This document shows positions 1-44,410 of a stretch of 64,000 nt of DNA, in pieces. The notes beneath the pieces were generated by a model. That model ran no database searches and was not told where the DNA came from. It saw only the letters and a list, made by a program, of their open reading frames with translations. The DNA lies in the NCBI GenBank assembly GCA_015272195.1, contig JACYMC010000173.1:28642-92641 (forward strand), read 5' to 3'. The DNA comes from Candidatus Sericytochromatia bacterium. Lineage in GTDB: Bacteria; Cyanobacteriota; Sericytochromatia; UBA7694. The translations under genes were made by a program, and so were the position numbers. The number at the start of each line of letters is the position of its first letter. Within the stretch, counting starts at the first letter, position 1.

Positions 1-55
1 CTCAGAACAATCCCTTCCAGACAGGTCAAATGTCCGTTTTGCCGAGCGTTACAGT

Positions 56-2338
56 GTGGTCAAAAAATTGGCGGGTGGGAGTGATGGGGCAACGTATCTG
101 GTCTGGGACGAACAAACGGATGAGCACTGCATTTTAAAACAGATGCAGCTCAGCACCCTGGGCAACTGGAAGCGCCTGGAGCTTTTTAAGCGCGAAGCCC
201 GTACCCTGGCGCATCTGGATCACCCTCAGATTCCGGCTTTGCTGGACTATTTTGAAACCCGTCACGATGATCGGGTAGATTGTTGCCTGGTGCTGCAGCG
301 GGTCAGCGGACAAACTCTGGCGGAGCGGGTTTATCAGGGCCTGCATTTGCCTGAAGACTCCTGTTATCTGATTGCCGTACAGATTCTTAAGATTCTGAGC
401 TATCTGCACCGCTTTAACCCGCCGGTGATTCACCGCGATATCAAGCCCTCCAATCTGATTCTCAACGATCAGGGGGTGGTCTACCTGATCGATTTTGGCG
501 GGGTGCAGGAAGCCCTGGCCCTGGCCGGCGCCGGTGGATCGACCATGATCGGCACCTATGGTTATATGGCCCCGGAACAGTTTTCAGGGCGGGCTTTGCC
601 AGCTTCTGACCTGTATGGTCTGGGGGCCACGCTGGTGTTTCTGCTCTCGGGCCGTGAGCCGGCCAATTTGCCCCAGCAGAATCTCCTGCTCAACTTCAGG
701 CCCTTTGTTGAGTGCTCCGCGCCTTTTGCCAACTGGATTGAACATTTGTTGCTGCCCACACCTGAGCAGCGCTTTCAGGGTGCTGACGAAGCCCTCGAAG
801 TGCTGGAGGCCATTATGCCCCAGTACCGCGTGCTGAGCCTGCCTGCGATTCAGGAGCGTGTTTCGCGGGCCATTCAGCTGGAGTGGCAGACCCTTAATAA
901 ACCCGCGCAAGAGGCTGAAGATGACAGCGTGGTACCGGCCAGCCATGTTTTGCCACCGGGGGCCCTGATTGACGGGCGTTACCGTGTGGAAGCGGTTCTG
1001 GGCCAGGGCGATATTGCCGTGACCTATGCCGTAACCGCTCTGGCCGATCAGCAAAAATGTGTGGTGCGCGAACTGCATTTTGAACGCATGACCAACTGGA
1101 AGAGCTTTGAGCTCTATGAGCGGGAGGTCAGTACGCTGGAACGGCTGAAACATCCTGGACTGCCCCGGCTGGTGGAGCATTTTGAAGTCAAAAACGATCA
1201 GCTGCACCGCTTTTATGTGGTGTCAGAGCAGATTGATGCCCGCAATCTGGAAGAACATCTGCGCCAGGGCTGGCGGCCGACGGAGGCGGAGGTCCGCCAG
1301 GTGGCTGCACAATTGCTGGCGCTGGTGGCTTTTTTGCAGGAACTGGATCCGCCGCTGATTCACCGGGATATCAAGCCCTCCAATATTTTGCGCGATGGTG
1401 CAGGGCAGATTTACCTGATTGATTTTGGTGCGGTGCAGGACGCTTTTCGTCCCCAGGGGGGCGGAGGCTCCACGGTCATTGGCACCTATGGCTATATGGC
1501 GCCCGAACAGTTTGTCGGCAAGGCTGTGCCCCAGTCCGATCTGTATGGCATTGGTACCACCCTGATTCATTTGCTGGCCGGGCGCTCACCTTCTGAGATG
1601 CCCCAGCAGGAGCTTAAAATTCAGTTTGTGGATCAGGTGCGCTGCAGCCAGCCTTTTTATTACTGGCTCGAAAAAATGGTCGCACCGCGCCCGGAAGAAC
1701 GCTTTGCTTCGCCCTGGGAAGCGTCTGAAAGCCTGCGTAAACTGGACAATATGCCCCTGATTTCGGCTGAACTGCTGGCCGAAGCGGAGCGGATTCTGGG
1801 TCCCGGCGATCCAGCCATTGTGATTCAGGAAGGCGTTGATGGTCTGCAGCTGCAGTTAAAGCCCATGCTGCATGATTATCGCAGCCTGCTGGTTCTGCTG
1901 CTGGGGGGCAATGTGGTGGGGCTGCCTGTTTTGCTCAGCATGCCCCAGATTGGCTTGCTGCTGGCATTGGCTTTGCCGCTGGGCAGCGGACTGGCTCTGG
2001 CCGCCATGAAGCAGCATGGTCAGCGTTACCAGACCCAAATCACCGTTGATCCAGACTTTTTTTCTTACCGTACGATCCAGCATCATCTGGGGCAGCCAGA
2101 GGAGGTGATTGAGGATTTGCGCTACCCAACCTTTGCAGTGGCTTCACTTTATCTGGAACAGTATGAGATTCCCAACCGACTGGTGATTCGGGTGCAATAC
2201 TCCCTGGCGGAACGCCCCATTGTCAAAACCACCCGCTATCCGATTGCCAGCTCCGCCAAAAAGGCCAATTATCTTTTAAAACGTCTGCGTGAAACGGTGG
2301 CGTTTTATCAGAAACAGCAGCGTCAGCGCGCTGACTGA
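56..2338 (+). CDS. Membrane-anchored Hanks-type Ser/Thr protein kinase with two tandem kinase domains; the 5' end may extend upstream of the window
   Basis: There are two copies of the catalytic loop HRDIKPSN, of DFG and of GTYGYMAPEQ (residues ~125-175 and ~425-475). The Gly-rich loop LAGGSDGATYLV starts at residue 5 and the frame is open back to nt 2 (GTG at 56). A predicted TM stretch (LLVLLLGGNVVGLPVLLSM...LALAAM) follows the second kinase domain. The C-terminal ~110 aa are unassigned. Confidence 0.85.
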   Translation: MVKKLAGGSDGATYLVWDEQTDEHCILKQMQLSTLGNWKRLELFKREARTLAHLDHPQIPALLDYFETRHDDRVDCCLVLQRVSGQTLAERVYQGLHLPEDSCYLIAVQILKILSYLHRFNPPVIHRDIKPSNLILNDQGVVYLIDFGGVQEALALAGAGGSTMIGTYGYMAPEQFSGRALPASDLYGLGATLVFLLSGREPANLPQQNLLLNFRPFVECSAPFANWIEHLLLPTPEQRFQGADEALEVLEAIMPQYRVLSLPAIQERVSRAIQLEWQTLNKPAQEAEDDSVVPASHVLPPGALIDGRYRVEAVLGQGDIAVTYAVTALADQQKCVVRELHFERMTNWKSFELYEREVSTLERLKHPGLPRLVEHFEVKNDQLHRFYVVSEQIDARNLEEHLRQGWRPTEAEVRQVAAQLLALVAFLQELDPPLIHRDIKPSNILRDGAGQIYLIDFGAVQDAFRPQGGGGSTVIGTYGYMAPEQFVGKAVPQSDLYGIGTTLIHLLAGRSPSEMPQQELKIQFVDQVRCSQPFYYWLEKMVAPRPEERFASPWEASESLRKLDNMPLISAELLAEAERILGPGDPAIVIQEGVDGLQLQLKPMLHDYRSLLVLLLGGNVVGLPVLLSMPQIGLLLALALPLGSGLALAAMKQHGQRYQTQITVDPDFFSYRTIQHHLGQPEEVIEDLRYPTFAVASLYLEQYEIPNRLVIRVQYSLAERPIVKTTRYPIASSAKKANYLLKRLRETVAFYQKQQRQRAD

Positions 2339-3402
2339 GGGGTGGTTGTTTCGGGGGGCTGTGCCGGTGTGGGGAGCTGTCCGCTGGCCAGATACTCACG
2401 CACCACGCTGAGACTCTGCTCAGGCTGCTCCCAGAAGAGATCATGACTGCTCTGGGGCACAATGCGCAGCGCGGCCCGTGCAAAGAGCCGCTGCTGGCGC
2501 GACTGAAAACGGGGACCGGTGATCTGGTTGCATTCGCCGCTCAGCAGCAGGACGGGGATCTGAATCTTGTCGAGGCCTTTTAAAAAGTCCAGCTGAATTT
2601 TACCCTGGCCATCGACCACGGCCTGGGTTTGCATCTTCCAGGCCCGAAAGCCGCCACGCCAGCTGCGCTCAGACAGGTCAGCCGGCAGCTGCTGATCACA
2701 ATAATAAGCGGCCTGCGTGCGGATCTGACCAAAGACAAAGTCGCGCCGGGCATCCGGGTCGATGGCGGGGACATGAAAGGATCGGCCCCAGCTGCTGGCG
2801 GTTCGCAGCAGCTGGCTGCTGGCCCCACGCTGGCCGGCAAACAGAACCTGTGCGGCCATCTCGGCGTTTAAAAATCCGGGCTCAGCCAGTACCAGGCGCG
2901 TTACGCGCTGCGGGTGCTCTGCAGTATAAGCGGCGGCCAGCATGCCGCCCCAGCCGTGGCCAAGCAGCTGTACCGGCTTTGTGCCGGCGTGCTGATCAAT
3001 GACGGCGGCCAGATCCTGCCGGGCCTGTTCCAGGGTCAGTTCGGTATCGGCTACCCGCTCTGAGAGGCCGCTGCCCCGCTGATCATAAAACAGGATAAAA
3101 TGCTGATCAGACAAAGCTTTGAGCGGCAGCAGACTGCGATAATCGCCGCCAGGCCCGTCATGCACCACGACCACAGGCGGCAAATGGCTGGCGCCAAAGG
3201 TCTCTGCATGCAGTGTGGTGTCTTTGAACGCAATTCGGGGCAGCGCAGGCTGGCTGCTGACGGTTTCCTGCTGGCTGTAATCGCCCCGGCTGCTGAACCA
3301 CAGCAGCGCAAAAGCCAGTACAGGCAGACAAAAAGCGGCCAGCAGGCCCAGTAAAAAGCGTTTGATTTTGGGTGGCATAGGGATCAACTTAGCAGAAGCC
3401 AC
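2323..3402 (-). CDS. Alpha/beta-hydrolase fold protein (proline iminopeptidase/epoxide hydrolase-like) with an N-terminal membrane anchor; the nucleophile-elbow Ser is replaced by Gly (GHGWGG)
   Basis: It carries the HGxP-type motif VVVVHDGPGG and the nucleophile elbow LLGHGWGGMLAAAY. The Gly codon at the Ser position is nt 2953-2955. There is an N-terminal hydrophobic segment (FLLGLLAAFCLPVLAFALLWF). It overlaps the convergent kinase gene by 16 nt. Confidence 0.7.
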   Translation of the reverse strand: MASAKLIPMPPKIKRFLLGLLAAFCLPVLAFALLWFSSRGDYSQQETVSSQPALPRIAFKDTTLHAETFGASHLPPVVVVHDGPGGDYRSLLPLKALSDQHFILFYDQRGSGLSERVADTELTLEQARQDLAAVIDQHAGTKPVQLLGHGWGGMLAAAYTAEHPQRVTRLVLAEPGFLNAEMAAQVLFAGQRGASSQLLRTASSWGRSFHVPAIDPDARRDFVFGQIRTQAAYYCDQQLPADLSERSWRGGFRAWKMQTQAVVDGQGKIQLDFLKGLDKIQIPVLLLSGECNQITGPRFQSRQQRLFARAALRIVPQSSHDLFWEQPEQSLSVVREYLASGQLPTPAQPPETTTPQSAR

Positions 3403-24082: not shown

Positions 24083-24521
24083 GCTGCAATTTTTGGGCCA
24101 GGGCCTGCAGAGCCAGACTGTAGCTGAGCGGGCCAAAGCCTGAAATCTGTCCCCAGACATGGGGGGTCAGTCGTGAATGATGCCGGAAGGACTCACGGGC
24201 ATGAATATTGCTTAAATGCACTTCAATCACGGGGTAAGCGATCACTTCCAGAGCATCTGCCAGGGCAATGCTGGTATGGGTATAAGCGCCGGCGTTCAGA
24301 ATCAGACCCGCTGTGCCGTCGCGCAAGCTTTCGTGCAGCCAGTCCAGCAACTGGCCCTCGTGGTTGCTCTGCTGGCACAGGAGCTGGATACCGAGTGTCA
24401 GGGCCTGGCTTTGCAGCTGGGATTCCAGCTCACTGAGGCTGAGCTGCCCGTAGTGCTGACCAGGGCGCTGCCCCAGCAGATTGAGATTGGGTCCGTTGAT
24501 GACCCGGATCAAAGCAGCCAT
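24069..24521 (-). CDS. aroQ: Type II 3-dehydroquinate dehydratase
   Basis: Conserved motifs are [37 protein letters not shown] and FRHHS. It is convergent with ruvB, overlapping by 14 nt. Confidence 0.9.
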
Positions 24522-26332
24522 CGGGTGTAATGCTCCTGATTCTCGGCCAGCAGATGACCGTATTGCTGACAGGCCTGGCTGATCATATCAAAGGCTCGGG
24601 CCCGGTCGTGTCCTGCCCGCACCAGCAGCACCTCGCGGGCTTCATCGGGCTCTTTATCGGCTACATAGCGCAGGATCAGCGCCGTGGTTTTGACCGGGTT
24701 ATGTATCTGAATGTATTTGAGCAGAACGGCCAGCTTGCGTGGGCTGATGTTCAGCGGGGCCGGAAAGTCGTTGGCAGCATGAAAGATAAACTCCATATAA
24801 TCTTCGACCGCCTCATTGCGGCTGGCGGCGTCCACTTCCTGCATGACCGTTACCAGCTTGTATTTTTTTTCGTCGCCCACCCATTTGACGGCGGTTTTGG
24901 ATTCAATCCTGGCCGAGTAATCTGCCATCAGATTGCCCTCCATGCGGTTGCCACGGTAGTCAAAAATCTTGTCACGAAAGGCATACATGCCACAAAGCCT
25001 TAAGACCACCATGTCCACAGGGCTAAAGGAGTAGCGAGAGCCGTGGCGCGGGGGTTCTGCACTGACAAAGCCCAGCATAAAGCGTTCGCCAGTCCATTCG
25101 GCGTAATTGCGGATAGGCTCAATCAGGAGCGGGGGCAAAATCGGATGCATGGCGTCATCCAGCTCAAATAAATTGGTATGAATCTGGGTGATTTTTTCAA
25201 GGGCCCGCACGACATTTTGCACGGTGCAGTAGTTTTGATTCAGTGGGTCGTTCTGGCCGCGGGTATGTACGTTTAACAGCACCCGTGTGCTGGACTCCGC
25301 AATTTTAAAAGACGATTGCTGGGCTGCCGCCACGGCAAAGTTGCTGAGGGCCTGGGCGTGGCTGCGAATCAGCCGCAGGGTTTCTTCATCAAAGATGATG
25401 TCTTTGCGGTTGCGCACAGAGCCAATATCCTGGGTGCCGGCATGAATCAGTTTGGCGGTGATTTCTTTCAGCTTCTGGTTTTTAATATCCACCTCCTGAC
25501 TGTGCTCCCGGATGCGGCTTAAAATATTGATCACCTGCTCGGCGTAAGCGTCCATATCCTGGCCCAGGCGACGGTATGTTGGATCTGAAATCACCTTGCT
25601 GATTTCTTCGCGTTCTTCGGGCTGGGGATCACGGGCAGCAATCAGGCGATTGTAGTGGCGGGCCTTGCTGAGGGTTTCCTGCAGGGCCGGCACCTGCTGC
25701 ACATAGCGAAAATAAGAGTCAAAAAGCTCTTCAAGCTGGCCAAAGAGATCCCGGCTCTGGTGCAGCAGAGCATAATAGGTGTTGTTGAGAATGGTGGTCT
25801 GTTCACGTGAGACGTCACTCTGGTGTTCCAGGCTGCGGGTGGCGCGGAATTTGGCCAGGTGTTTTTTGTTGAGTCCCTCCGGCTCCAAAACCCCCAGCGC
25901 AATGGCGTTAAACTGATCCTCACTGCGATAAATGCTGTGGCTCCAGCGGGGCAGCTCGGCCTCAGGCAGATTGAGTACGCTTTCGCGCAGGGCCTGATAA
26001 ATGCTGGTGTCGAGCAATTGCATTTCAAAGCGCTGGCCTTCAGCATCTTCAAATACAACCGTATCGGCAATGGCACCGGTATTGATAAACAGGCGCTGTG
26101 CATCGTTCAGTGACTCCAGGCGGTGTTCGATCAGATAGCTTAACAGGGCCATATAGGCATGGCGCACGGTGGCCACCCGCTCGCTGATGCTGATTTTTTC
26201 ACTGTCCGGATTGAGGCTTGCTTCGCCACTCAGAATCGCCAGGGCATCGATCACGATCGAGGCAATATCATCCGGTATGCCGGCCAGGCATTCGTTCAGA
26301 TAATGGTTGATGTCAGGCGATGTGGGCTGCAC
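24509..26332 (-). CDS. Hypothetical cytoplasmic protein (607 aa), co-transcribed upstream of aroQ
   Basis: It is a long ORF with good coding periodicity and no TM or signal peptide. Its stop overlaps the aroQ start by 13 nt. No family was recognised. Confidence 0.5.
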   Translation of the reverse strand: MQPTSPDINHYLNECLAGIPDDIASIVIDALAILSGEASLNPDSEKISISERVATVRHAYMALLSYLIEHRLESLNDAQRLFINTGAIADTVVFEDAEGQRFEMQLLDTSIYQALRESVLNLPEAELPRWSHSIYRSEDQFNAIALGVLEPEGLNKKHLAKFRATRSLEHQSDVSREQTTILNNTYYALLHQSRDLFGQLEELFDSYFRYVQQVPALQETLSKARHYNRLIAARDPQPEEREEISKVISDPTYRRLGQDMDAYAEQVINILSRIREHSQEVDIKNQKLKEITAKLIHAGTQDIGSVRNRKDIIFDEETLRLIRSHAQALSNFAVAAAQQSSFKIAESSTRVLLNVHTRGQNDPLNQNYCTVQNVVRALEKITQIHTNLFELDDAMHPILPPLLIEPIRNYAEWTGERFMLGFVSAEPPRHGSRYSFSPVDMVVLRLCGMYAFRDKIFDYRGNRMEGNLMADYSARIESKTAVKWVGDEKKYKLVTVMQEVDAASRNEAVEDYMEFIFHAANDFPAPLNISPRKLAVLLKYIQIHNPVKTTALILRYVADKEPDEAREVLLVRAGHDRARAFDMISQACQQYGHLLAENQEHYTRWLL

Positions 26333-26435: not shown

Positions 26436-26885
26436 ATGAAAGCTTCTGTTTTGTGGCGTATACTCTGCCTGGCCTGGCTGGCGCTGACTGCGAGTGCTCT
26501 GGCTCAGCAGCGCTCGCCTGCAGAGAGTCTGCTGTATCCTGTAGCACCGGTCAGGCAACTGCAGTACGCGAAGGGCCAGACCGTTTATGCGCAGTATCTG
26601 TCTTTGCCGGTTGAGCAGGTCCTCTTGCACTTTTTGCGTCAGGCGCGTGAGCCAGCCTGGCAACTGACCTTTCCTGATGCACTGGAGGCCGAAGCCTGGC
26701 TGCGTGCCTTGCAGCAGAAACCCCAGGAACCTCCTGTCTTTATTTTAAACTTATACCATCTAAAAACAGATGTTAATGTTCACTTAACAATTGGCGGGGT
26801 TCCTGGCACAAGCCCTTCCCGGCCCCGGTCTATAATTACGGTGTACAGTACCAAACACCCTTTGGGTGGGCGTCAGGGAGGATGA
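26436..26885 (+). CDS. Small secreted protein, hypothetical
   Basis: An internal ATG at 26436 gives a signal peptide MKASVLWRILCLAWLALTASALA. The long ORF from 26307 overlaps the divergent gene. Confidence 0.4.
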   Translation: MKASVLWRILCLAWLALTASALAQQRSPAESLLYPVAPVRQLQYAKGQTVYAQYLSLPVEQVLLHFLRQAREPAWQLTFPDALEAEAWLRALQQKPQEPPVFILNLYHLKTDVNVHLTIGGVPGTSPSRPRSIITVYSTKHPLGGRQGG

Positions 26886-28203
26886 GCCAATGGCTTCAAT
26901 GGACAATCTGAGAGATAAAATCCGCTCCAGGCGTGCCAACACCAGCGAGCTGGACGGACAAAACCCCTTCAGTCAGCATTTTGAGTCTGTACCTGAGGTT
27001 GAAGCGCCTGTGCATGACAGCACAGGTCAGACGGACTCCCTGATTTCAGAGATTTTTGCAGAACCTGCTGCAGCGCCTTCGTCCGATGAGTCCAGGGCCG
27101 CCAGACCCACATCCCCTTCTGCAGAGACGGGCTTTAAGCTGTCTCTGGGTGGTCGCTTTAAGCAACTGGAGGTCAACCGCAAAATGCTGTTGATTTCGCT
27201 GGGTGTGGCGGCTTTGGCCAGCTTTCTGTCGATGGCTTACCTTAAGGGCATTGCCGAACCGCTCAAAGGCCAGTCTAAACTGGTCAAAGTGGTCACGCTG
27301 ACCCAGGATGTGCCAGCCAGAACGACCCTGAGCGAAGAGATGTTGACCATTAAAGAGGTGCCCGCAGCCTATCTGCCCGAGGGTGCCATGGTCTATGAAC
27401 CTGATATGAAGTTGCTGGGCCAGGTTGCTGTGACTTCTCTGTATAAAGGCGAAGTCCTGCACGGTAAACGCGTGTCCATGCCCAACAGCAATATGGGAAT
27501 CTCTGCTTTGACGCCAGCCGGTCATCGTGCCTTTACCATTCGCATTGATAATGCCCATCAATTTCTGCCTTCCACCCTTGAACGCGAAGAGTTTGCTGAC
27601 GTGGTGGCAACGGTCCCGGATCCCAATCCTGTGCGTCGCGGTCGCCTGATTACCATTCCGATTTTACAGAAAGCCAAAGTGCTGGCTGTCGGGGGAAGTT
27701 TTTCACCTGCTGAGCTGGCAGAGCAGACCGCACAGCCGACAGACATTACCCTGGCTGTACCTGAAGACCGGATCAATCTGATGGTGATTTTAAAAGACAA
27801 AGGTGATTTTACTGTGACTTCCCGCCCCTTTGGTGATGACAGTCTGCAACGTGAAAAATACACCATTGAAGAAATTGAAAATGCTCTGCAGGGCAAATTT
27901 GAAGCTGAAAAAGCGGAAGCCCCTGCGCCTCCTGAGCCGAGGGCTCAGTCCGTAAAAGACGAAGAGCCGGCGCCGCCGGCTCCCCTGGTCGATCTTTCTC
28001 AGCCCGCTGCACCCGCTTACCGGGCGCCTGTTCGCCGGGCGCCCGTGCAGCGCGCACCCGTACGCCGGGCGGCACCACCTCCGCGCGCCGCAGCACCCAA
28101 GCCCGCAGCCCCCAAAGCGGCGCCACCCAGGCCGGCAGCACCGCCGCCACGCCGTGCACCGGTTGTGATCAATGGTGGCGTGGTCACCCAGGGCGGCAAT
28201 TGA
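26866..28203 (+). CDS. CpaB/RcpC-family (SAF domain) pilus-assembly-like protein with a long cytoplasmic N-terminus and a Pro/Ala/Arg-rich C-terminal tail
   Basis: The TM segment is LLISLGVAALASFLSMAYL. A SAF domain follows (VTLTQDVPARTTLSEEML...GEVLHGKRV), then a CpaB C-domain (GHRAFTIRID...ADVVATVP). The tail is APVRRAPVQRAPVRRAAPPPRAAAPKPAAP. An alternative start is ATG 26890. Confidence 0.65.
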   Translation: MGVREDEPMASMDNLRDKIRSRRANTSELDGQNPFSQHFESVPEVEAPVHDSTGQTDSLISEIFAEPAAAPSSDESRAARPTSPSAETGFKLSLGGRFKQLEVNRKMLLISLGVAALASFLSMAYLKGIAEPLKGQSKLVKVVTLTQDVPARTTLSEEMLTIKEVPAAYLPEGAMVYEPDMKLLGQVAVTSLYKGEVLHGKRVSMPNSNMGISALTPAGHRAFTIRIDNAHQFLPSTLEREEFADVVATVPDPNPVRRGRLITIPILQKAKVLAVGGSFSPAELAEQTAQPTDITLAVPEDRINLMVILKDKGDFTVTSRPFGDDSLQREKYTIEEIENALQGKFEAEKAEAPAPPEPRAQSVKDEEPAPPAPLVDLSQPAAPAYRAPVRRAPVQRAPVRRAAPPPRAAAPKPAAPKAAPPRPAAPPPRRAPVVINGGVVTQGGN

Positions 28204-28307: not shown

Positions 28308-31300
28308 ATGAGCAAGTTAGCCAAGCGTTGCAGTGCCCTTTTTATCGCTTCCAGTCTGGGCGGTCTTTTATCTGCCTGTCCTTCTGATCCTCCGCCCAAC
28401 ACCAATGTTCGCCCCATTCCTTCGACACCGCCGGGCCTGATCACACCCACTCCGCCCCCAGGATCGGTGATCCAACCGCCTTCACCGGGTCCGGGTTTGC
28501 CGGGTGACCCTTCACCTTTACCAACCAGCACGCCGGGCACTTCAACGGGCCTGGCCATTGCCACAACGGGCTTGCCGACAGCCGTACTCAACTTTAACTA
28601 CAGTTTTGGCCTGCAGGCCAGCGGCGGCAGCGGCTCTTATAATTGGTCGATTGTATCGGGTAACCTGCCCCGTGAACTGGGTCTGGACCCCAATACAGGC
28701 CAGATTTTTGGCCGTCCTACCCAATCGGGTTCCTTTGAATTTGAGGTCCAGGCGCTCGACAATCAAAGCGGTCAGGTCGCGCGTCAGCGCCTGTTTATTC
28801 TGGTGGCTGACAGTGATGCAGGTGTTAATACCCTCTCTGTTCTGACCAGCACCCTGACTTCGGGCGTGGTGGATCGGGGTTACTCACAGCGTCTGGAAGT
28901 GACCGGTGGGGTAGCCCCTTTCAGCTGGACCATTTCTGCAGGGGCCCTGCCGGACGGCCTGAGCCTCAATACCAACACGGGTGAAATCTCCGGCACACCC
29001 ACCCTGCGTGGCGAAGAAACCTTTACCGTACGTGTAACCGACGGTCAGGGGCGCACCCAGACCCGTACCCTGAGTATTACCATTAACCGAACTGATTCAG
29101 ACATCACGGTGCTTACGGCCAGCCTGCCGCCCGGTGTCAGCGGTACCGCCTACAACCGCACAGCCTGTGGTCAGACTTTTTCAGGTCAGCTGAGCGCGAC
29201 GGGTGGTGACGGTGATTACCGCTGGAGCGTTTCACGCGGTAATCTGCCGCCAGGTCTGACCATGAACAGCAACGGCAGTATTACGGGCACGCCAACGCAG
29301 GTAGGCTCTTATACCTTTACGGTCCGTGTGGATGACGGCGAGGAAAACTCCGCCAGCAAAGTCTTTACGGCTGAAATCAGCCAGGTACTGATTCATAATT
29401 TTACCCCGGATTCCGGTGGTAAAGGGCTGCGCATGACCATTTTTGGCGAAGGCCTCAGCAGCATGGGCGGTGGCACCCAGGTGCGTTTCGGTGATGTGCA
29501 GTCTGTACCGGGCGCTGTGAACACTGTGGTTGACTGTCAGCAGTTTCAGACCAACATTCCTGAAAACGCCAAAACGGGTCTGATTACCCTGCGCAACGGC
29601 ACAACGGATCTGGGCAGCAGCAGCAAGCCTTTTGTGGCTGAGGATGTGGTGATCAACGAGGTCTTTGTCAGTCCCGATGGTTCAGGCAATCAGTTTGTGG
29701 AACTCAAAAACCGCAGCTCAGCCTCTGTCAGCATTGCCGGTTGGTACCTGCACTATACGGGTGAAGATGGCAGTCTGGTCAGTTTCCCTATTCCTCCTGA
29801 AACACCGCCTTTGGCTACCGGCGCGCTGACTGTGATCAACATCGGTCGCAATGGCGGAACTTCCGCGACAGATATTTATACGGGCACGGGCGTACAAGAG
29901 ATGCGCTTTGATCCGCTCAACGGTACGGCCGCCGATGCCCTGACCCGCGTGGCGCTCTGTAAAGACAACCCGGTCAATCCTGGCGAAGTCTGTGCCACTA
30001 GCGCCACGGATACCAAGTACCGTGACTACCTGCAGTTTGGGGGCGCCGCTGTAGATGGCCAGGACCTGGAAAATAACGCGGTCAGCGTGGGTATCTGGTC
30101 CGACGATGCGACCCTGAGTACCACAACACTGGTTGCGCCGCTGAGTGCCGTTTCAGACGATTTTGCCGATGATAACGCAGCCCAGTTTGGTGTGGCCGAA
30201 GCGGGCAACGATAAATCGGGTCTGCTTGTGGATGACGGCAATACAAAGTTTGCGGATTATACAGGTGAAGCTGTGCTTTATTACACCCCCGAGACCGGTA
30301 CCCTGGCTAACCAGCAGCAACGCATCCGCCGCACAGTCACAGGGGTAGGTACTGGTGTTCAGGAAGACCGTGTGCGTTTGAGTGCCCCGATTTTTGAAGC
30401 CAAAATTCAGGCCACCAATACGGGTGATGGCGCTGTGGGCAACGGCATTCTGGTGGATACGGTTGAAATGCTGGGGGCACCTCGCACCACGGCACCGACT
30501 TATGCAGGTGACCTGGTCAATGTGGTTGCCGGTACGGTCCTGCGCACGGTGCTGGGACTGCAGGCTGGCCCCAGAGTTGAGCTGAGTGAGGTGCCCTTTT
30601 CTCCGACAGTGGCTGGTAATGTCAGCGATGGTGTGAATGTCGGTGGCTTTGAAGTGGCTGCGGGCAGCGTCGACCTTGTGACGGGTGCGCAGACGGTCAA
30701 TGTGACCTATGTGCGCAATCCGGGTGATCTGAGCTCTACGCAAAACTTTTCTGTGGTGCGCACGGTCTCTGGACTGAATTCTGCCACCAATCGGATTGCC
30801 ATTACCCAGGCGCTGGCTTCTGCGGCGGTGAGTGCTGACAATGAAGGCGACGGTCTGCCTGGCAGCGAGATTGAACTGACGGCCACGACCAATTTTGCTA
30901 CGGGTGACCGGGCCTTGTTTAACGGTCTGAATTGTGCCAATGCAGCACCCTGTGAATTGACGCTGGGTGGTAATCTGGTGCGTCTGGCTTCTCCGCTGGC
31001 TCAGCTTCAGATTTCAAATGACAATACGGGCAACGGTGAAGAAAGCAGCCGTTTACAGGTAACGCTAGCAAATGCTGATCGTTTCCCGGTTGATGCCAGC
31101 GTGCGTATTAATGGTCAATTACGTCAGATTCAGCAAATAACTCCGTCTTTTGGCGGTACAGAACCTTTGTTTCAGCTGAGCGCGCCTTTTCAGATGACGC
31201 TTAACAATGGAACGCCGCAGGGTGACGGCACCTCAGGCCAGGGTATTGGTGTCACGAGCACTGATGGCTTCCTGGTCAACAACCGTGTCCGGCTGGGTAA

Positions 31301-32063
31301 TGAAGTGCGCCGGATTACGGCGATTGTACCGGGTACACCGCCCCGGATTGAGTTGGATAACCACTTGGGTAACATGACTGTGGCTACGGCCAATGCGGGC
31401 AATGGCTCATCAGCAGCGCCTCTGACCGTAGCTGACGCCACCGGGTTTAGCAGTGGCAATACCGTTCGCTTTGCCGGGTTGAATCAGGTGCGGACCATTA
31501 CTTCAGTGAATGGCAATAACCTGGTGCTCAGTGCACCGGTTTACCGTTCCCTGCAGACCACTGTGGCCCCCGGTAGTCCTGCCGCAAACCAGATTAACCT
31601 GGTCAGTGTGGCTGGCTTGACCGCTGGTGCTAATGGTGACTGGCTTCACTTTGCTGGTGATAATATCCGGCAGATTACGGGCATTGCAGGCAATCAGGTG
31701 ACACTTAATGCGGCTTTGCCGGCGATTCCTGCCGACAATAGCGAAGTGCGCGTTTTGCTCAATGGTGGCGAGCTGAACCGTGTTCCAACGATAGGTAACC
31801 TGACGCCTGTGGGTGTGGGTGGTGACGGTGCGGCGGTGCCTTATAATATCAATTTGGTGCCAACAGCCGGTACCTTTACCCTGGTGCCTTATGATGATGC
31901 GGGCGCCCGTCAGGCCCGCATCAGCCGCATTCCAACCAGTGGTTCGATTTATCTCGCACCCCGGGCGGGCTTTCTGCGCAAGTACCTCTCGATTAAGCTG
32001 ACGGGAGACAATCTGGCTGTGGGCGGTTACACCACCACAACCGCGCCTTCTCCCCGGCAGTAA
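28308..32063 (+). CDS. Giant (1251 aa) surface lipoprotein with a Pro-rich linker, four putative-Ig (He_PIG-like) repeats, an IPT/TIG domain and a lamin-tail (LTD) domain, followed by a ~750 aa Gly/Asn/Thr/Val-rich region
   Basis: The lipobox is LLSAC. Repeats read ...[34 protein letters not shown] / [33 protein letters not shown] / [32 protein letters not shown]. The IPT begins [10 protein letters not shown]. The LTD is [34 protein letters not shown]. Confidence 0.75.
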   Translation: [1251 protein letters not shown]

Positions 32064-32812: not shown

Positions 32813-34768
32813 TTATAACTTCCTTGCAAGCAATTTGATTTCACTCGTATAGAGCAGGTGCTGGGGGACATGACGGGCACTGAAGTGTTCAATGTGCTGA
32901 CTCAGATTCTGCACCAGGGTGCGCATGCTCTCGATTTCCTCGATTGGGGCATGACCTATACTCAGTATTTCCATCTGACAGGCTTTGACCATATCTTCCA
33001 GCTGGGGCTGGGTGATCCAGCGCAGAACCGGGTAGTGTTGCTGGCTGTATTTGACGGGCCAGTCTAGAAATTTCAGCAGGAGGTAAATACACAGCGGATT
33101 CACCACGCTCAAAAAGACTTTACCCCCTGGCTTCAGGCTCTGACTGAGTCGCCGCAGTATTTCAAGTGGGCGACGCAAACCGTTCAGGCTGCCGGGCAGC
33201 AGCAGCATATCCAGTGGTTTTTGCGGCCATTCGCCGTGCAGATGGCCCTGACGAACGTGTAATTGCTGGATGTGATAGCCTTCCAGAAAGGGTTTACAGG
33301 CGGTCTCTGGTTGCAGGACCACTTCCAGCACCTGATCTTCGGGTGTAAAGTGTTCCCTGGCCAGGCTGCGCGCCACAACGGCGCGCCCCCAGTAGATAAT
33401 GTCCCCTTTATGTGGGCCCATAAAGCCCTGCTTTTCTTTGCCCAGGCGGGCAAAGGCATCATAAATTTCATGAAAGACCGCACCGCGCAGCTGGGTGTGG
33501 TAAAGGGGCAATTCCGGTGAAACATTTTCCCAGTCCATGGCATGCCATGGCATGCGCTCCAGAGTGGCGCTATCGGGCTTGTGCTTTTTGGCGTAAGCAT
33601 CCCACATGGGTGTGCCAGGAATCGGGGCCATCAGCGTGGTCTGCAGACGTTCAAACAGATGGTGGTGATCCTGCAGGTAAAGGTAAAACGCTGCCATTTG
33701 CTGGCGTGATGTCTGAGGTTCAGGGTTGAGAAAAACCAGGCCCAGGACATCAATCTGGATTTCTTTACAGGCCAGCAAAACCTGGCTCAGACGTTCCGGG
33801 CTGGCCTGTGACAACAGTTTGTTCTGGTGGCCAAAAGGCGCCAGCTGAAACATGAGTTTACGCACGTTCATGGCTTTGAGCTGTTTTAAAATGCCAGGTG
33901 TCAGCTGTTCCGGAGCGGCTGAAAGAATAAAAAAGATCTGCTGGTGTAATTTGCGCTCCACAATCAGGGCTTGAAGCTCTTTGAGGCGTTCAGGAAAAGC
34001 CAGTAACTGCTGATCGGCAATAAAAACCGGTGAAAAATACATGCGCTGGTGGGCTTCCAGGGGCAAAGACTGAAACAAAAAAGTATAATTGGCCACGATT
34101 TGCTCCAGCTGCTTCAGAAGGCTGACGCTGCTGAGCTGACGTGGCTTACGGGTCGGTGCGTAGGCCAGCGTTGTCAGCAGGTTATCCTGAATCCGGGCGG
34201 TCCGAATCACAGGGGCGCTGAAGCCCGGAAAGTCCAGCCAGAAACGGTAGTTGGGTGTGGGCAACTGGTTAAGGTCGGCAATCATCTGGCCCGGTGTGCC
34301 TGAATACATGCGCCCCTGACTCTGGTAGACAATGCCGGGGATCCGGCGGTAATGGGCACTTGTGGCATCGGGCTGTTTCAGATAGAGTTCCAGCAACTGC
34401 TTCAGCGGTACTTCCACTTCGCCAATAATACCAACGTCTACAGCGGGTGGCAGGCTTTGGGGCAGATATGAAATATGCGGGCCCGCCAGCCAGACAGGAA
34501 TATCCAGATAGGCTTTGATATTTTCGGCCATCGCGCTGGCCAGCTCAAAGCAGGCGCTGGTGGACCACAGCAGAATGACATCCGGGTGTTTGCTGGCCAG
34601 GCTTTTAAGCTCCAGCCCGATCACCGGGGAGACATTGTCGAAGGTCTGCTGAATAAACGGCACGATTTCCGATAGCGCGTGGGCGGCAAAATACTCCAGC
34701 CCACTGGCTTGTATGGCACCTTTTTTAAAGTGCTCTGGTTTAAAAAGAGGAAGCAGTCCTAGTTTCAT
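32813..34768 (-). CDS. Cysteine-less paralogue of the adjacent B12-binding radical-SAM/methyltransferase fusion (B12-like N-domain, degenerate rSAM core, MTase-like C-domain)
   Basis: The architecture is colinear with the 645 aa protein. The B12-domain region IGIIGEVEVPLKQLLELYLKQ matches IGVLGEGEETLFELMQLYQRN. The FTARGCPYKCTFCAS position reads IRTARIQDNLLTTLA, so no CxxxCxxC is present. Confidence 0.6.
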   Translation of the reverse strand: MKLGLLPLFKPEHFKKGAIQASGLEYFAAHALSEIVPFIQQTFDNVSPVIGLELKSLASKHPDVILLWSTSACFELASAMAENIKAYLDIPVWLAGPHISYLPQSLPPAVDVGIIGEVEVPLKQLLELYLKQPDATSAHYRRIPGIVYQSQGRMYSGTPGQMIADLNQLPTPNYRFWLDFPGFSAPVIRTARIQDNLLTTLAYAPTRKPRQLSSVSLLKQLEQIVANYTFLFQSLPLEAHQRMYFSPVFIADQQLLAFPERLKELQALIVERKLHQQIFFILSAAPEQLTPGILKQLKAMNVRKLMFQLAPFGHQNKLLSQASPERLSQVLLACKEIQIDVLGLVFLNPEPQTSRQQMAAFYLYLQDHHHLFERLQTTLMAPIPGTPMWDAYAKKHKPDSATLERMPWHAMDWENVSPELPLYHTQLRGAVFHEIYDAFARLGKEKQGFMGPHKGDIIYWGRAVVARSLAREHFTPEDQVLEVVLQPETACKPFLEGYHIQQLHVRQGHLHGEWPQKPLDMLLLPGSLNGLRRPLEILRRLSQSLKPGGKVFLSVVNPLCIYLLLKFLDWPVKYSQQHYPVLRWITQPQLEDMVKACQMEILSIGHAPIEEIESMRTLVQNLSQHIEHFSARHVPQHLLYTSEIKLLARKL

Positions 34769-34814
34769 GCCGGCATGATATCCGCAGGGGTCAGATCTTA
34801 AAAATTACCCTGTA

Positions 34815-36752
34815 CTATAGCACAGGGGCGGGCTTTTCTGAAGCCCGCAGTATGCGTCCGGCGCTTGTTGACGGGCTTTGTAAAACGCTGAGACAGGTCA
34901 CAGGAATTTCCTGCTGGCTCTGCCCCTCTGCATTCAGTAACTGCAAGGCCTGCTGCATTTTGTCTGACATCTGTACCGGGCTGGCGAGAAGCACCTGAGA
35001 CTGGCTTTCGTGCCAGCGGCTGCGTTTCAGCAGCGGCTGCAGACTCTGGTGACTGATAAAGCGCAGGGCATGGTGGTGGTTGACGCCAAAGGGGCTGGCT
35101 TCCCATTTGCCGCGCAGCAGTTGCTCCATCAGGGCCGGGTGACGGGCGTTATAGTAGATACACAGAATGTGTCCCTCGGGCTTTAGATACGCATGCAGGC
35201 TTTGAAGCAGGGCGATCGGATCGCGCAGTTTTTCGAGGGCGTGGCTGAGCAGAATCGTGGCGTATTGCTGTTTTGCTTCAATGGGCGTGAGTTCCGCTTT
35301 CCCTGAGGCAATGAGGATTTTGGTGACTTTCAGATCGGGCTGCAGATCGGCCAGGCAAAACGCTTCAAAGCCAATTTCGAGAACGGGTCCTTTGATGCTG
35401 ATATCCTCGAGCAGGGTTTTGTAGAGATGCTCAAAGTATTTGCGCTTGGTCAGCCAGGCATGCAGTTGCTGCTTACCGGCCTGCAGTGTGGTCTGAAAGA
35501 CCTGAAAGCGGTCGTAAATGCTTTCAAAGGTCTCTGGTCTCAGGTGCTGATTCATATACACAGAGCGTCCCCGCTCAAAACTGAGGTTAAGGGCATCCCA
35601 GTTTTCAAAGTTGGGGGGCAGAGCACCCAGATCCTGGGCTTGCTTCCAGAGTTCAGTGCCTGGAAAGGGCGTGGCATAGGCGATGGTGGGCTGGGCAAAA
35701 CGGTAGTGATTGCTTTGAATAAACCAGTAGGATCTGGCCATATCCTCTTCGGTTTCTTCGGGTACACCGATCATCATATTGCTGACCACGGGCAAATTAA
35801 AGCGCTCACAAATTTCCAGGGCCCGCTGGTTGTCACGGGCAGAGGTTTTGCCTTTGAGGGCGGTTAAAATGCGATCGCTGGCTGACTCCAGGCCAAAGCA
35901 AACCACCAGCCCGTTCATTTGCACGATCATCCGGGCAATTTCTTCATCAAAGACGCTGGCACGTGCGTTCAGCGAAAAGCCCACTTTTTTGTGCAGGCCT
36001 TTGGCCCGGATGGCATCTACAATGGCCCGCATGCGCTTTTTATTCAAGGGGAAGAGGTCATCATTGATGGGAATAATGCTTTGATCCGGAAAATGGCTGA
36101 CGATGTACTCGATTTCCTGAATCACTCGCTCCACTGAGTGGTAGCGGGTGCGCTGCCAAAAGCGGGTAGAGGCGCAAAAGGTGCACTTGTACGGGCAGCC
36201 CCGTGCGGTAAAAATGGGTTGCTGCCACTGGGTGTCTTTCAGCAATAGCTCCCGATTGGGCATGGGGATGCTGTCCATGTCTTCGATCCAGGCGCGTGGG
36301 GCAGTAATGATACGTTCGCCTTTGTGCCAGAATACCAGGCCATTGATTTTGCTCAGGTTTTCGGGGGTGGCTTCATTGCGCTGGTACAGCTGCATCAGCT
36401 CAAACAGGGTTTCTTCGCCTTCGCCCAGCACGCCAATGTCTACTTCGGGGGGCAGGGTTTCGGGGGCTGCTGAAATATGTTCACCGCCAACGATCAGGGG
36501 CACGCTGGCATCCAGTTGTTTAAAGTGCCGGGCGTGGTGAATGACGTCCTCAAAGGTTTCGGTAAACGAAGACAGACCAATGATATCCGGGCTCTGACGC
36601 AGCAGCGCGTCACGGTTATCGACTTCGAGAATGGTGTCATGAAAGTTGAGGTGGGTTTCAAGATAGGCCGACAGATAGCCGAACGACAGCGGCGCGATAA
36701 AACCCCGATCTTCGTAGTCTTCGCCTTTGAGATACATCATTCCCAGTCGCAT
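34815..36752 (-). CDS. B12-binding radical SAM protein (class B) fused to a C-terminal class I methyltransferase-like domain
   Basis: The N-terminal cobalamin-binding-type domain reads PLIVGGEHISAAPETLPPEVDIGVLGEGEET. The radical-SAM cluster motif is TARGCPYKCTFCAS. The C-terminal ~200 aa are homologous to the stand-alone MTase. A GGAGG SD lies 6 nt upstream. Confidence 0.8.
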   Translation of the reverse strand: MRLGMMYLKGEDYEDRGFIAPLSFGYLSAYLETHLNFHDTILEVDNRDALLRQSPDIIGLSSFTETFEDVIHHARHFKQLDASVPLIVGGEHISAAPETLPPEVDIGVLGEGEETLFELMQLYQRNEATPENLSKINGLVFWHKGERIITAPRAWIEDMDSIPMPNRELLLKDTQWQQPIFTARGCPYKCTFCASTRFWQRTRYHSVERVIQEIEYIVSHFPDQSIIPINDDLFPLNKKRMRAIVDAIRAKGLHKKVGFSLNARASVFDEEIARMIVQMNGLVVCFGLESASDRILTALKGKTSARDNQRALEICERFNLPVVSNMMIGVPEETEEDMARSYWFIQSNHYRFAQPTIAYATPFPGTELWKQAQDLGALPPNFENWDALNLSFERGRSVYMNQHLRPETFESIYDRFQVFQTTLQAGKQQLHAWLTKRKYFEHLYKTLLEDISIKGPVLEIGFEAFCLADLQPDLKVTKILIASGKAELTPIEAKQQYATILLSHALEKLRDPIALLQSLHAYLKPEGHILCIYYNARHPALMEQLLRGKWEASPFGVNHHHALRFISHQSLQPLLKRSRWHESQSQVLLASPVQMSDKMQQALQLLNAEGQSQQEIPVTCLSVLQSPSTSAGRILRASEKPAPVL

Positions 36753-36816: not shown

Positions 36817-37431
36817 CTAAAGATCCGGTAAAATATTTTTGAGCGGATCAATGCGGATGGCTGACATAGACAATTTGGGATCCAGACCAAACTCTGCCCG
36901 CCGCTCAACATCGTCCGCTTTCAGGCTGACTGTTACGGGGACATTTTTTTGTTTTGGAAACACCAGCTCCTGACTTTGATTGGCCTCCAGCCGGTCAATG
37001 ACTTTTTTAAGTTGACCATATTGAATCACAATGTTTTCGATGGTTTCATCCGATTGATTCACAATAAAAATTGAAGCGCTGTTCTGGCTATGTGGAAAGT
37101 AGCTGTATTGTATAAAGAAGAAGATGCCTGTCAGATTTAACAGCAAAATGGCAGCAGCTAGCGTTAGGGGTTTAGTGAAGCTGTGCTGGGGCCTTTTGGC
37201 TTCAGGCAGCTCGCTGATACGGTTCATTTGTTGATTGAACTGGTTCAGCAAATGCAGGGCAAAAAACCCCCCCAAAACGCTGACTCCCAAACCAAGCCAG
37301 GCCAGCCAGAGATTGGTGCTCAGTTTTAAGCCGAGCCAGAGAAGTATGGGAGCAAAAACAAAAACAAGGTTTTTTCGTTTGAAGGGTTCTGGTTTGAATG
37401 GGTCTGTAGATGTGCTCATGCTAACCGACAA
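36817..37431 (-). CDS. Small membrane protein (3 TM plus a soluble C-terminal domain), hypothetical
   Basis: The TM segments are LVFVFAPILLWLGLKL, LAWLGLGVSVLGGFFALHLL and LTLAAAILLLNLTGIFFFI. It sits between the pilin-like genes and the rSAM genes on the same strand. Its GC is lower than its neighbours. Confidence 0.5.
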   Translation of the reverse strand: MSVSMSTSTDPFKPEPFKRKNLVFVFAPILLWLGLKLSTNLWLAWLGLGVSVLGGFFALHLLNQFNQQMNRISELPEAKRPQHSFTKPLTLAAAILLLNLTGIFFFIQYSYFPHSQNSASIFIVNQSDETIENIVIQYGQLKKVIDRLEANQSQELVFPKQKNVPVTVSLKADDVERRAEFGLDPKLSMSAIRIDPLKNILPDL

Positions 37432-37455
37432 AGATTTGATGTGATGAAAAGGGCT

Positions 37456-38583
37456 TTACAGGTCTCTGGCGTAAGCGGTGTGCAGGTAGGTGATGTCCAC
37501 AAAGCTGTTATGGCTGCTTTGACCCACGGCTGTTGTGCGAATCAGAATCGAGCGGCCGCTGCTGTGGCCCACAATGGCTGTTTCAAATCCCCTCGGAAAG
37601 GTTCCCAGGCTCAGGGCGGGCGTGGTATCGCTGGCCGGTATCACGTCCTGCGCGTTGGGGGGGCATGAGGGCACGGTGGGGTTATAAAAGCCAGGCACGG
37701 GGTTTCTGAGATTCATGGTCTGGCCGCCGTTTCCACTTTGTGTTTGATTGTAGGCAATGCTGTAGCGGGTATCAGATGAGCTGGGGAAGCGAAACACACT
37801 GGTGTGGCGTGCCTTGGGAATCTGAAAAGAAGCCCCTGCGCTGCTCAGACTGGTGCCAGCCCCTGCAACATTATAAAATGCGGTATTGGCATTGGCTGAA
37901 GACCGTTCCCAGGCAAAGTTAATGTTGTTGCTAATCAAGTCGCTGCGAATCGTGGACGCACTGCCCGGGAACAAGGTCAGCAGGCGTTCAAGTTGTTCTG
38001 CAGAGACGAAGCGCACACTTCGCCACTCAATCAAACGCTGACCCTGAAACACATTGTTCCCCTGATAAATGTCGTAGTCTGTATCATCGCTGATATAAAT
38101 ATATTTAAAGACATAGACATCAACCCGGGCGTCTATGCCGCCGCTGAAATCTCTGAAGGTGTCATCCAGTTCAGCGTACAGCAGCGCATTGCCCACACTG
38201 TTGGCCCGAAAAAAGTTCTCTGGCGACACAGCGCAGGTTTTTTCAATAGCCAGTGAACCAGACACCCGAATCGTTGGCAAGGTTGAGTCAGGGATAATGG
38301 CGGGTGAATCGCTCAGGCTGATTTTATTGCGATAGGCATTCCCCAGGGTGTCGTTGCCAAAGACCGCTTTGGCCTGGTTGAGGCCTTTGCTGAGGCGAAT
38401 GCTGCCTGACTGGAGCTCACTTTTAACCACAGCATACAGCTGTGTCACGTTATGTGAGCGCCAGCTGGTTTGCAGAAAGCTTACGCAGAGGGCGACCAGC
38501 GTAACCAGAATGGCCATGGCAATCATCAGCTCGACCAGTGAAAAACCTTTGGACCTTTTGAGGGTGTTTATGGTTTTACTCAT
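37456..38583 (-). CDS. Type IV pilin-like (minor pilin/pseudopilin) protein, 375 aa
   Basis: The prepilin N-terminal cleavage/methylation motif is KGFSLVELMIAMAILVTLVAL (Gly-1, Phe+1, Glu+5). Its start overlaps the upstream stop (ATGA). Confidence 0.8.
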   Translation of the reverse strand: MSKTINTLKRSKGFSLVELMIAMAILVTLVALCVSFLQTSWRSHNVTQLYAVVKSELQSGSIRLSKGLNQAKAVFGNDTLGNAYRNKISLSDSPAIIPDSTLPTIRVSGSLAIEKTCAVSPENFFRANSVGNALLYAELDDTFRDFSGGIDARVDVYVFKYIYISDDTDYDIYQGNNVFQGQRLIEWRSVRFVSAEQLERLLTLFPGSASTIRSDLISNNINFAWERSSANANTAFYNVAGAGTSLSSAGASFQIPKARHTSVFRFPSSSDTRYSIAYNQTQSGNGGQTMNLRNPVPGFYNPTVPSCPPNAQDVIPASDTTPALSLGTFPRGFETAIVGHSSGRSILIRTTAVGQSSHNSFVDITYLHTAYARDL

Positions 38584-44131: not shown

Positions 44132-44410
44132 GCATCTCTTTCCCCACATCGTCTGTGCGCGTTCACCTGCTGACGAAAGCGTGTGGGAAAAGGCCATGCA
44201 GGAAGCCTGGCATTCATGATTTAGCTATCGCGTGCACAGGATAAGCAGGTGGGTTCCTGCGACCTGTTGCGATAATCATCGAACTGTCCTGAGAGAGAAA
44301 GACAGCCGGGTTCCACTTACACTAACGACATCTGAGAGAACAAACACATGGATTCGTTTGATGATCTTATTATAGGCGCAGGGTTTAAGTTTTGTAAATA
44401 GGTGTTCAGC

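Follow-up and report, generated by a model that had tools for sequence, protein, structure and literature searches.

The window, by which we mean the whole stretch of 64,000 nucleotides of contig JACYMC010000173.1 from a Candidatus Sericytochromatia bacterium, begins with a gene (1..2338, + strand) for a membrane-anchored protein of approximately 780 residues with two Hanks-type Ser/Thr kinase domains in tandem. The first of these domains is canonical, while the second possesses an arginine at the position of the VAIK lysine in strand β3. Pseudokinases are defined from sequence by the loss of the VAIK-Lys, the HRD-Asp or the DFG-Asp (PMC4718504). By this definition, which asks for at least one of the three residues to be lost and for the loss to be kept among orthologues, domain 2 classes as a predicted pseudokinase of the mild, KSR-like “VAIR” type. 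A kinase and a pseudokinase on one chain, as a first-pass annotation of the same DNA had considered, is thus borne out by the sequence definition. The protein is an undescribed bacterial kinase-pseudokinase tandem and a testable natural case of a Lys-to-Arg exchange, and not a new principle.

Residues are numbered here from window base 2, to which two has to be added for the full protein and from which 18 has to be subtracted for the numbering of the first-pass annotation. Lys46 of domain 1 is therefore K48 of the full protein and K28 of the annotation, Arg356 of domain 2 is R358 and R338, respectively, and the αC Glu of domain 2, Glu375, is Glu377 of the full protein. All coordinates given for parts of the kinase gene refer to the + strand. 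The annotation had placed the start of the open reading frame at a GTG at position 56 (~760 residues), which needs to be corrected. No stop codon occurs upstream of position 56 in the kinase frame, and the frame is open back to window base 2. As the residues encoded upstream of this GTG (RFAERYSVV...) match the beginning of domain 2 (LIDGRYRVE...), translation does not begin at GTG 56. The closest homologue, P0001, comprises 780 residues and shows 95% identity at 100% query coverage; its gene in the DNA of locus L080 begins ATG AGC TCA GAA..., with the third base of AGC corresponding to window base 1. The alignment reading ATG AGC before TCA puts the true ATG 5 nt to the left of window base 1, so that five nucleotides (ATGAG) lie beyond the left window edge. 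The stop codon occupies positions 2336-2338.

Pfam Pkinase (PF00069) was detected in two stretches of the protein (E 3.6e-66, 223.7 bits compared to a cut-off of 31.7), and the best solved relatives of the kinase domains in a phmmer search of the PDB are StkP, PknB and PknA. Domain 1 (41..823; match of the domain hidden Markov model at residues 14-274) contains the β3 Lys (AAA, 137-139), the αC Glu (194-196), HRDIKPSN (431-454) and DFG (491-499). It is followed by a weakly conserved, partly helical linker (824..967), for which the mean pairwise identity among the proteins sharing the arginine is 0.31 and the predicted local distance difference test (pLDDT) of the structure model falls below 50 at residues 282-314. 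Domain 2 (968..1750; match at residues 323-583) retains the αC Glu (1124-1126), HRDIKPSN (1361-1384) and DFG (1421-1429), giving the signature R-E-D-N-D. The two domains align by BLASTP across 256 residues without gaps at 43% identity, a value higher than the ~35% estimated in the first-pass annotation, and HRDIKPSN, DFG and IGTYGYMAPEQ occur in two copies each, just as had been read there for each domain. The αC Glu, the HRD Asp, the catalytic-loop Lys and Asn, and the DFG Asp are invariant in both domains of all 59 tandem homologues collected. Two further features concern the tandem family as a whole: the Gly-rich loops of both domains (within 41-200 and 968-1130) are degenerate, often with one or two Gly, and a W-K pair directly before αC (NWKRLELF.RE) is invariant in both domains. 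These features suggest that the family may handle ATP somewhat unconventionally even where the β3 Lys is present.

The arginine in domain 2 is encoded by CGC at positions 1067..1069. In the gapless alignment of the two domains Lys46 (CILKQ) pairs with Arg356 (CVVRE), which confirms, by alignment as well as by codon, the assignment of K28 and R338 made in the annotation. The annotation had further asked which residue pairs with the αC Glu. The phmmer alignments to solved structures of S. pneumoniae StkP put Arg356 on the Lys of VAVK and Glu375 on the αC Glu, so both residues fall on the expected columns and the Glu partner of the Arg site is present in domain 2 (YEREV). A single lower-ranked phmmer alignment, to TLK2, has a shifted register at Arg356. 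With respect to the β3 Lys of Hanks-type kinases, domain 1 has it (CILK) and domain 2 does not (CVVR).

Whether this arginine belongs to the strain or to the lineage was judged from the homologue alignment of the 59 tandem-kinase proteins. The window protein and P0001-P0014 (49-95% identity), in the following called the Arg clade, have Arg in the β3 column of domain 2 in 15 out of 15 cases, compared to Lys in 44 out of 44 of the other tandem homologues. Arg is also found in two fragments of the clade besides the 15 full-length proteins, the sequences originating from independent samples. In the 11 clade genes for which codons were read, the residue is encoded by CGC (5), CGT (3), CGG (1) and AGG (2), the last of which is a single step from the Lys codon AAG. 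The use of four Arg codons at one site shows that the arginine itself was kept by selection through synonymous turnover. Among 349 kinase-domain matches, taken from homologous proteins and from loci that are partly redundant with them, Arg in the β3 column occurs in domain 2 of the Arg clade only. The residue is hence conserved in the close homologues and is not a variant of this strain; a sequencing error or a strain polymorphism is ruled out by the 15 full-length proteins, the two fragments and the four codons.

A lysine supplied from elsewhere could in principle replace the one that was lost. The top PDB alignments place no other Lys at the catalytic position of domain 2, and a column scan of the whole protein found no Lys gained specifically in the Arg clade. 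The Gly-rich loop of domain 2 (GQGDIAVTY) contains no Lys either, and a relocated lysine of the WNK type is excluded on these two grounds. Both of the observations that the first-pass annotation had named as speaking against its proposal failed to appear, as no alternative Lys is aligned and the close homologues are without Lys at the site.

Whether domain 2 is decaying was judged from the selection acting on it. From the comparison of the window with L080 (dS ~0.4-0.5) we calculated the ratio of non-synonymous to synonymous substitution (dN/dS) separately for the parts of the gene. It amounts to 0.022 for domain 1, 0.044 for domain 2, 0.087 for the linker, 0.113 for the membrane-helix segment and 0.036 for the C-terminal domain. 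Domain 2 is consequently under strong purifying selection, nearly as strong as that on domain 1. The ratio of the mean pairwise identities of domain 2 and domain 1 is 0.92 in the Arg clade compared to 0.87 in its Lys-bearing sister clade, which indicates that domain 2 has not been relaxed in the Arg clade, and 73 of the 256 domain columns are invariant within it. The dN/dS of domain 2 and the conservation ratios reject a decaying relic. The explanation that the Arg is an error or polymorphism, or that domain 2 is functionless and decaying, can draw on the single-residue difference itself and on nothing else; faced with 17 sequences (15 of them full-length), four codons, a dN/dS of 0.044 and the invariant columns, we consider it next to impossible.

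The column scan returned four positions in the entire protein that are specific for the Arg clade, namely R356, H393, R403 and T678, and three of them lie within domain 2. Apart from R356, just one substitution in domain 2, His393 on strand β4 (1178..1180), is shared by every member of the Arg clade and by none of the sister clade; Arg403, in the β4-β5 turn, is found in 13 out of 15 members. An assignment of H393 to position RS4 of the regulatory spine was considered and rejected, since registration on HPxxxxL puts it three residues past RS4, where it would probably point away from the core. The co-occurrence of H393 with an arginine that was selected in its own right, as judged from the four codons, could be taken to mean that domain 2 has been repurposed. 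It might then accept another nucleotide or small molecule, or perform an AMPylation- or glutamylation-type transfer as in SelO or SidJ, with the arginine being adaptive. Kinase folds with altered chemistry are indeed known (cited in PMC13519141). The known examples have extensively remodelled pockets, however, whereas the active site of domain 2 is otherwise as in the Lys sister clade and the domain shows no more than the three clade-specific changes. We therefore regard repurposing as unlikely.

Sericytochromatia are non-photosynthetic relatives of the cyanobacteria. Close relatives with names come from Candidatus Sericytochromatia and Blackallbacteria, with one from Obscuribacterales, and the homologues within the Arg clade are probably from Candidatus Sericytochromatia. 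In a scan of GTDB genomes, loci with two full kinase domains were found in Sericytochromatia only, and photosynthetic cyanobacteria gave single-domain relatives. The same scan returned no member of the Arg clade, the best match being a Lys sister with 48% identity. In a library of 1.84 billion representatives at 50% identity the Arg clade amounts to one representative plus fragments. In a neighbour-joining tree the Arg sequences form one group, sister to the Lys clade P0015-P0022, and with the site itself excluded this group was recovered in 138 out of 200 bootstraps overall, in 68 out of 100 for domain 2 alone and in 22 out of 100 for domain 1 alone. A divergently oriented gene for a predicted lipoprotein lies upstream of the kinase gene in 10 out of 10 Arg-clade loci fetched and is missing from the Lys sister locus L001; this shared synteny supports a common origin of the Arg clade.

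At least two kinase domains occur in 86 out of the 241 relatives sampled. The first-pass annotation had called the arrangement rare in bacteria, which holds in so far as such tandems are uncommon overall and in the GTDB scan were found only in Sericytochromatia, yet they form a coherent family. Of these 86 relatives, 55 are canonical in both domains and 14 combine a canonical with an Arg-type domain. In approximately 15 the second or third domain is more heavily degraded, in at least eight patterns, for example DFG-to-NFG together with Asn-to-His, HRD-to-HRN, or several residues lost together. The N-terminal domain is almost always canonical. This repeated degradation of downstream domains behind a canonical N-terminal one indicates that downstream catalysis is dispensable in the tandem family, and it favors a regulatory role of the second domain. 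The loss of catalytic residues in one domain recurs in the family, and the window protein represents its mildest form. As a separate observation, a second tandem kinase of 755 residues (L085:2447-4714(+), L088:1-243(+)) adjoins the Arg-clade gene upstream in two genomes, followed by a protein binding cyclic nucleotides (cNMP); one of its domains is without the αC Glu, the HRD Asp and the DFG Asp.

The part of the protein behind the kinase domains was modelled with AlphaFold2 (AF2). For the C-terminal 189 residues the model, for which 22 homologues were supplied, is confident, with a pLDDT of 90.9 and a predicted template modelling score (pTM) of 0.81. It starts with a helix and a pair of strands, continues with two long hydrophobic helices and then six strands, and ends in a long C-terminal helix; the AF2 model of the full-length protein recovers the same elements. 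The first two β-strands (1814..1861; residues 606-611 and 614-619) precede the two hydrophobic helices (1874..2026; residues 625-645 and 651-675), which are joined by a turn of ~5 residues and are predicted to form a membrane hairpin. The remaining six strands and the C-terminal helix (2027..2335) complete a PH-like fold. The region of the helix pair is the only stretch of the protein with a Kyte-Doolittle mean above 1.6 over 19 residues. Instead of the single transmembrane segment assumed in the first-pass annotation there would thus be two hydrophobic helices in a hairpin, with ~103 residues after them, and the ~110 C-terminal residues that had been left unassigned there are predicted to make up most of a PH-like domain that the hairpin interrupts. 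The model shows the β-sandwich with a C-terminal helix that is characteristic for PH/PTB-like folds. The module from 22 members gave no Pfam match at E ≤ 1 and cannot be placed in the PH, bPH or Ycf4 families, the alignment by hhalign with a Pfam-validated Ycf4 sequence gave a probability of 0.09, and a search of a database of 5.8 billion proteins with the C-terminal profile retrieved two fragments of its own family and nothing else. As the turn between the helices spans only ~5 residues there is no extracytoplasmic sensor domain, and both kinase domains and the PH-like domain would lie on the same side of the membrane.

The authors propose the following mechanism. The protein would be a membrane-tethered tandem Hanks-type kinase with every soluble domain on the same side of the membrane, presumably the cytoplasmic side because kinases need ATP. 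Domain 1 would be the catalytic kinase, and domain 2 would have arisen by internal duplication. In the lineage of this genome the β3 Lys of domain 2 would have been exchanged for Arg, probably once, and the Arg then kept by selection, leaving the nucleotide pocket and the activation loop intact. The β3 Lys, or a Lys at the same spatial position, is required for catalysis in those canonical kinases in which this was tested, and often dispensable for nucleotide binding (PMC4718504, PMC13519141). Judging from engineered K-to-R mutants and from KSR2, domain 2 may therefore bind ATP-Mg and transfer phosphate poorly or not at all. It could serve domain 1 as a nucleotide- or phosphorylation-dependent partner, be it as allosteric activator or inhibitor, as docking platform or as substrate, and might act within one chain or across a dimer. 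The split C-terminal PH-like domain with its hairpin would keep this assembly at the membrane and might in addition have a binding partner in it. We infer ATP binding, lost catalysis and a regulatory role for domain 2, as well as the topology in the membrane, and we give an even chance to the combined picture of a catalytic domain 1 and a nucleotide-binding, catalytically impaired regulatory domain 2, both held at the membrane by the split PH domain and its hairpin.

Several observations weigh against this picture. The HRD Asp, the catalytic-loop Lys, the activation-loop Ser/Thr and the P+1 loop are kept in domain 2, as would be expected of a working kinase, and they are retained across a clade in which dS is saturated. 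Long-established pseudokinases usually lose some of these residues. The full-length AF2 model has a pTM of 0.51 and shows no confident interface between domain 1 and domain 2, while the individual domains are well modelled; it thus speaks neither for nor against contacts between the domains within one chain. The family-wide degeneration of the Gly-rich loops in both domains means that the use of ATP may already be unconventional. Finally, the monophyly of the Arg clade is only moderately supported by the 138 out of 200 bootstraps.

The first of these points leads to the alternative that both domains are active. Arg356 would then stand in for the Lys, pairing with the αC Glu and contacting the ATP phosphates, and the protein would be a dual-kinase relay like RSK or MSK, in which one domain phosphorylates the other or each has separate substrates. 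The invariance of the other catalytic, activation-loop and P+1-loop residues in domain 2 throughout the clade is in agreement with this, as are the dN/dS of 0.044 without relaxation relative to the Lys sister clade and the phosphotransfer reported for KSR2, which carries the same substitution (PMC4718504, PMC13519141). On the other hand, the β3 Lys, or a Lys in its spatial place, has been called an absolute requirement for catalysis in several canonical kinases (PMC4718504), the reported activity of KSR is low and of uncertain significance (PMC13519141), and far heavier losses in the second domain are tolerated in the relatives. We regard activity of both domains as the main rival, less likely than the impaired domain 2. 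A more specific version, in which domain 2 is a working “VAIR” kinase that was kept through a long divergence and the dual-kinase relay is anchored by a split PH domain and hairpin like that of EROS (see below), appears more doubtful still.

The divergent lipoprotein of the Arg-clade loci L080-L090 (e.g. L084:5413-5943(-)) has 176-204 residues, a lipobox of the form MKKQ...LL[ST]ACP, an invariant CCW and no Pfam match. Beyond it, most loci contain a DUF4442 protein and a PG_binding_1 protein of ~500 residues. At the window locus the lipoprotein gene would sit just past the left edge. On the other side an α/β-hydrolase gene (2323-3402, - strand) is convergent with the kinase gene and overlaps its 3' end by 16 nt; the same arrangement is present in L080, and other members of the clade have a thymidine kinase gene in that place. 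The genes downstream of the kinase encode this α/β hydrolase, an NAD-binding oxidoreductase, a PLD-like protein, an acyltransferase, EPSP synthase and others, and no PP2C or FHA partner was found among the 20 window proteins scanned.

Further into the window, a 607-residue open reading frame (24509-26332, - strand) is without Pfam match. A gene for an RcpC/CpaB-like pilus assembly protein (26866-28203) precedes one for a predicted lipoprotein of 1251 residues with He_PIG and PKD-like Ig repeats and a lamin-tail domain (28308-32063, + strand). Two adjacent paralogues of ~650 residues follow (32813-36752, - strand), the second of which (34815-36752) has a methyltransferase domain at its C-terminus in addition to a B12-binding radical SAM domain, while in the first only the methyltransferase was detected. 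A cluster of genes with the type IV pilin N-methylation motif extends over 36817-44197 (- strand); its 1442-residue protein (38580-42908) has no other Pfam domain and may be a giant pseudopilin-like protein.

Tandems of kinase and pseudokinase are central to eukaryotic signalling, as in JAK, GCN2 and the tandem kinases of plant immunity, and bacterial counterparts are not described in the literature that we searched, two recent surveys of Ser/Thr kinases and pseudokinases in bacteria included. The Arg clade represents an unusually clean experiment of nature on the residue that is most conserved in the kinase fold, as one Lys-to-Arg exchange has been fixed and kept in an active site that is otherwise untouched. 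An active paralogue is present on the same chain, and the Lys-bearing sister proteins allow reciprocal swaps and provide a ready-made control. The clade thereby offers a way to ask if the “VAIR” state of KSR has a catalytic meaning. The split PH domain with its membrane hairpin would in addition be an uncharacterised mode of anchoring a bacterial kinase without an extracellular sensor.

Among known systems, KSR1 and KSR2 resemble domain 2 most closely in residue pattern, in that the β3 Lys is exchanged for Arg and the HRD Asp, the catalytic-loop Asn and the DFG Asp are kept. KSR2, with VAIK changed to VAIR and HRD and DFG intact, binds ATP-Mg and has at most weak phosphotransfer of uncertain significance, and its main role is that of a scaffold and of an allosteric partner for another kinase (PMC4718504, PMC13519141). 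KSR is not a close homologue, however, and its one kinase-fold domain pairs in trans with RAF and MEK, whereas the partner kinase of domain 2 is located on the same chain and is its own paralogue. The structure of KSR2 has αC out.

In bacteria, two groups of Hanks-type proteins, ActPs2 and DYD, show a conserved β3 Lys-to-Arg exchange, and ATP binding was proposed for them from AlphaFold3 models (PMC12599244; bioRxiv 10.1101/2025.01.12.632604). Domain 2 belongs to neither. ActPs2 has HRD Asp-to-Asn and a deletion of DFG (PMC12599244), both motifs being intact in domain 2, and DYD lacks the αC Glu and has a DYD motif (PMC12599244), where domain 2 has the αC Glu and DFG. Both groups are single-domain proteins of actinobacteria or firmicutes, unlike the tandem described here. 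The wording “tandem” or “two kinase” is absent from the surveys reporting them (PMC12599244; bioRxiv 10.1101/2025.01.12.632604), and a targeted literature search brought up no publication on tandem kinase domains in bacteria.

With regard to the C-terminal module, an antiparallel pair of membrane helices in EROS precedes the six strands and the helix that form a PH domain, and EROS was reported as the orthologue of Ycf4 (bioRxiv 10.1101/2023.09.11.557130). EROS (CYBC1) shares the order of elements with the predicted split PH-like module of the window protein, but there is no sequence evidence that EROS or Ycf4 are homologous to it.

The closest likeness in overall architecture is to the JH2-JH1 pair of JAK, to GCN2 and to plant tandem kinases such as WTK1/Yr15, which also possess two kinase folds per chain, one of them without a canonical residue. 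The active domain of JAK and of GCN2 is under the control of the pseudokinase (PMC4718504, PMC12867742, PMC6170490). The window tandem is not homologous to these arrangements, as its two domains are mutual paralogues; it would be of independent origin, through internal duplication in bacteria, with the order kinase then pseudokinase. It also differs in that its domain 2 is degenerate at one residue only, while JH2 of JAK is additionally without the HRD Asp. The protein therefore shares the architecture of the kinase-pseudokinase tandems as a class, and not as a homologous family.

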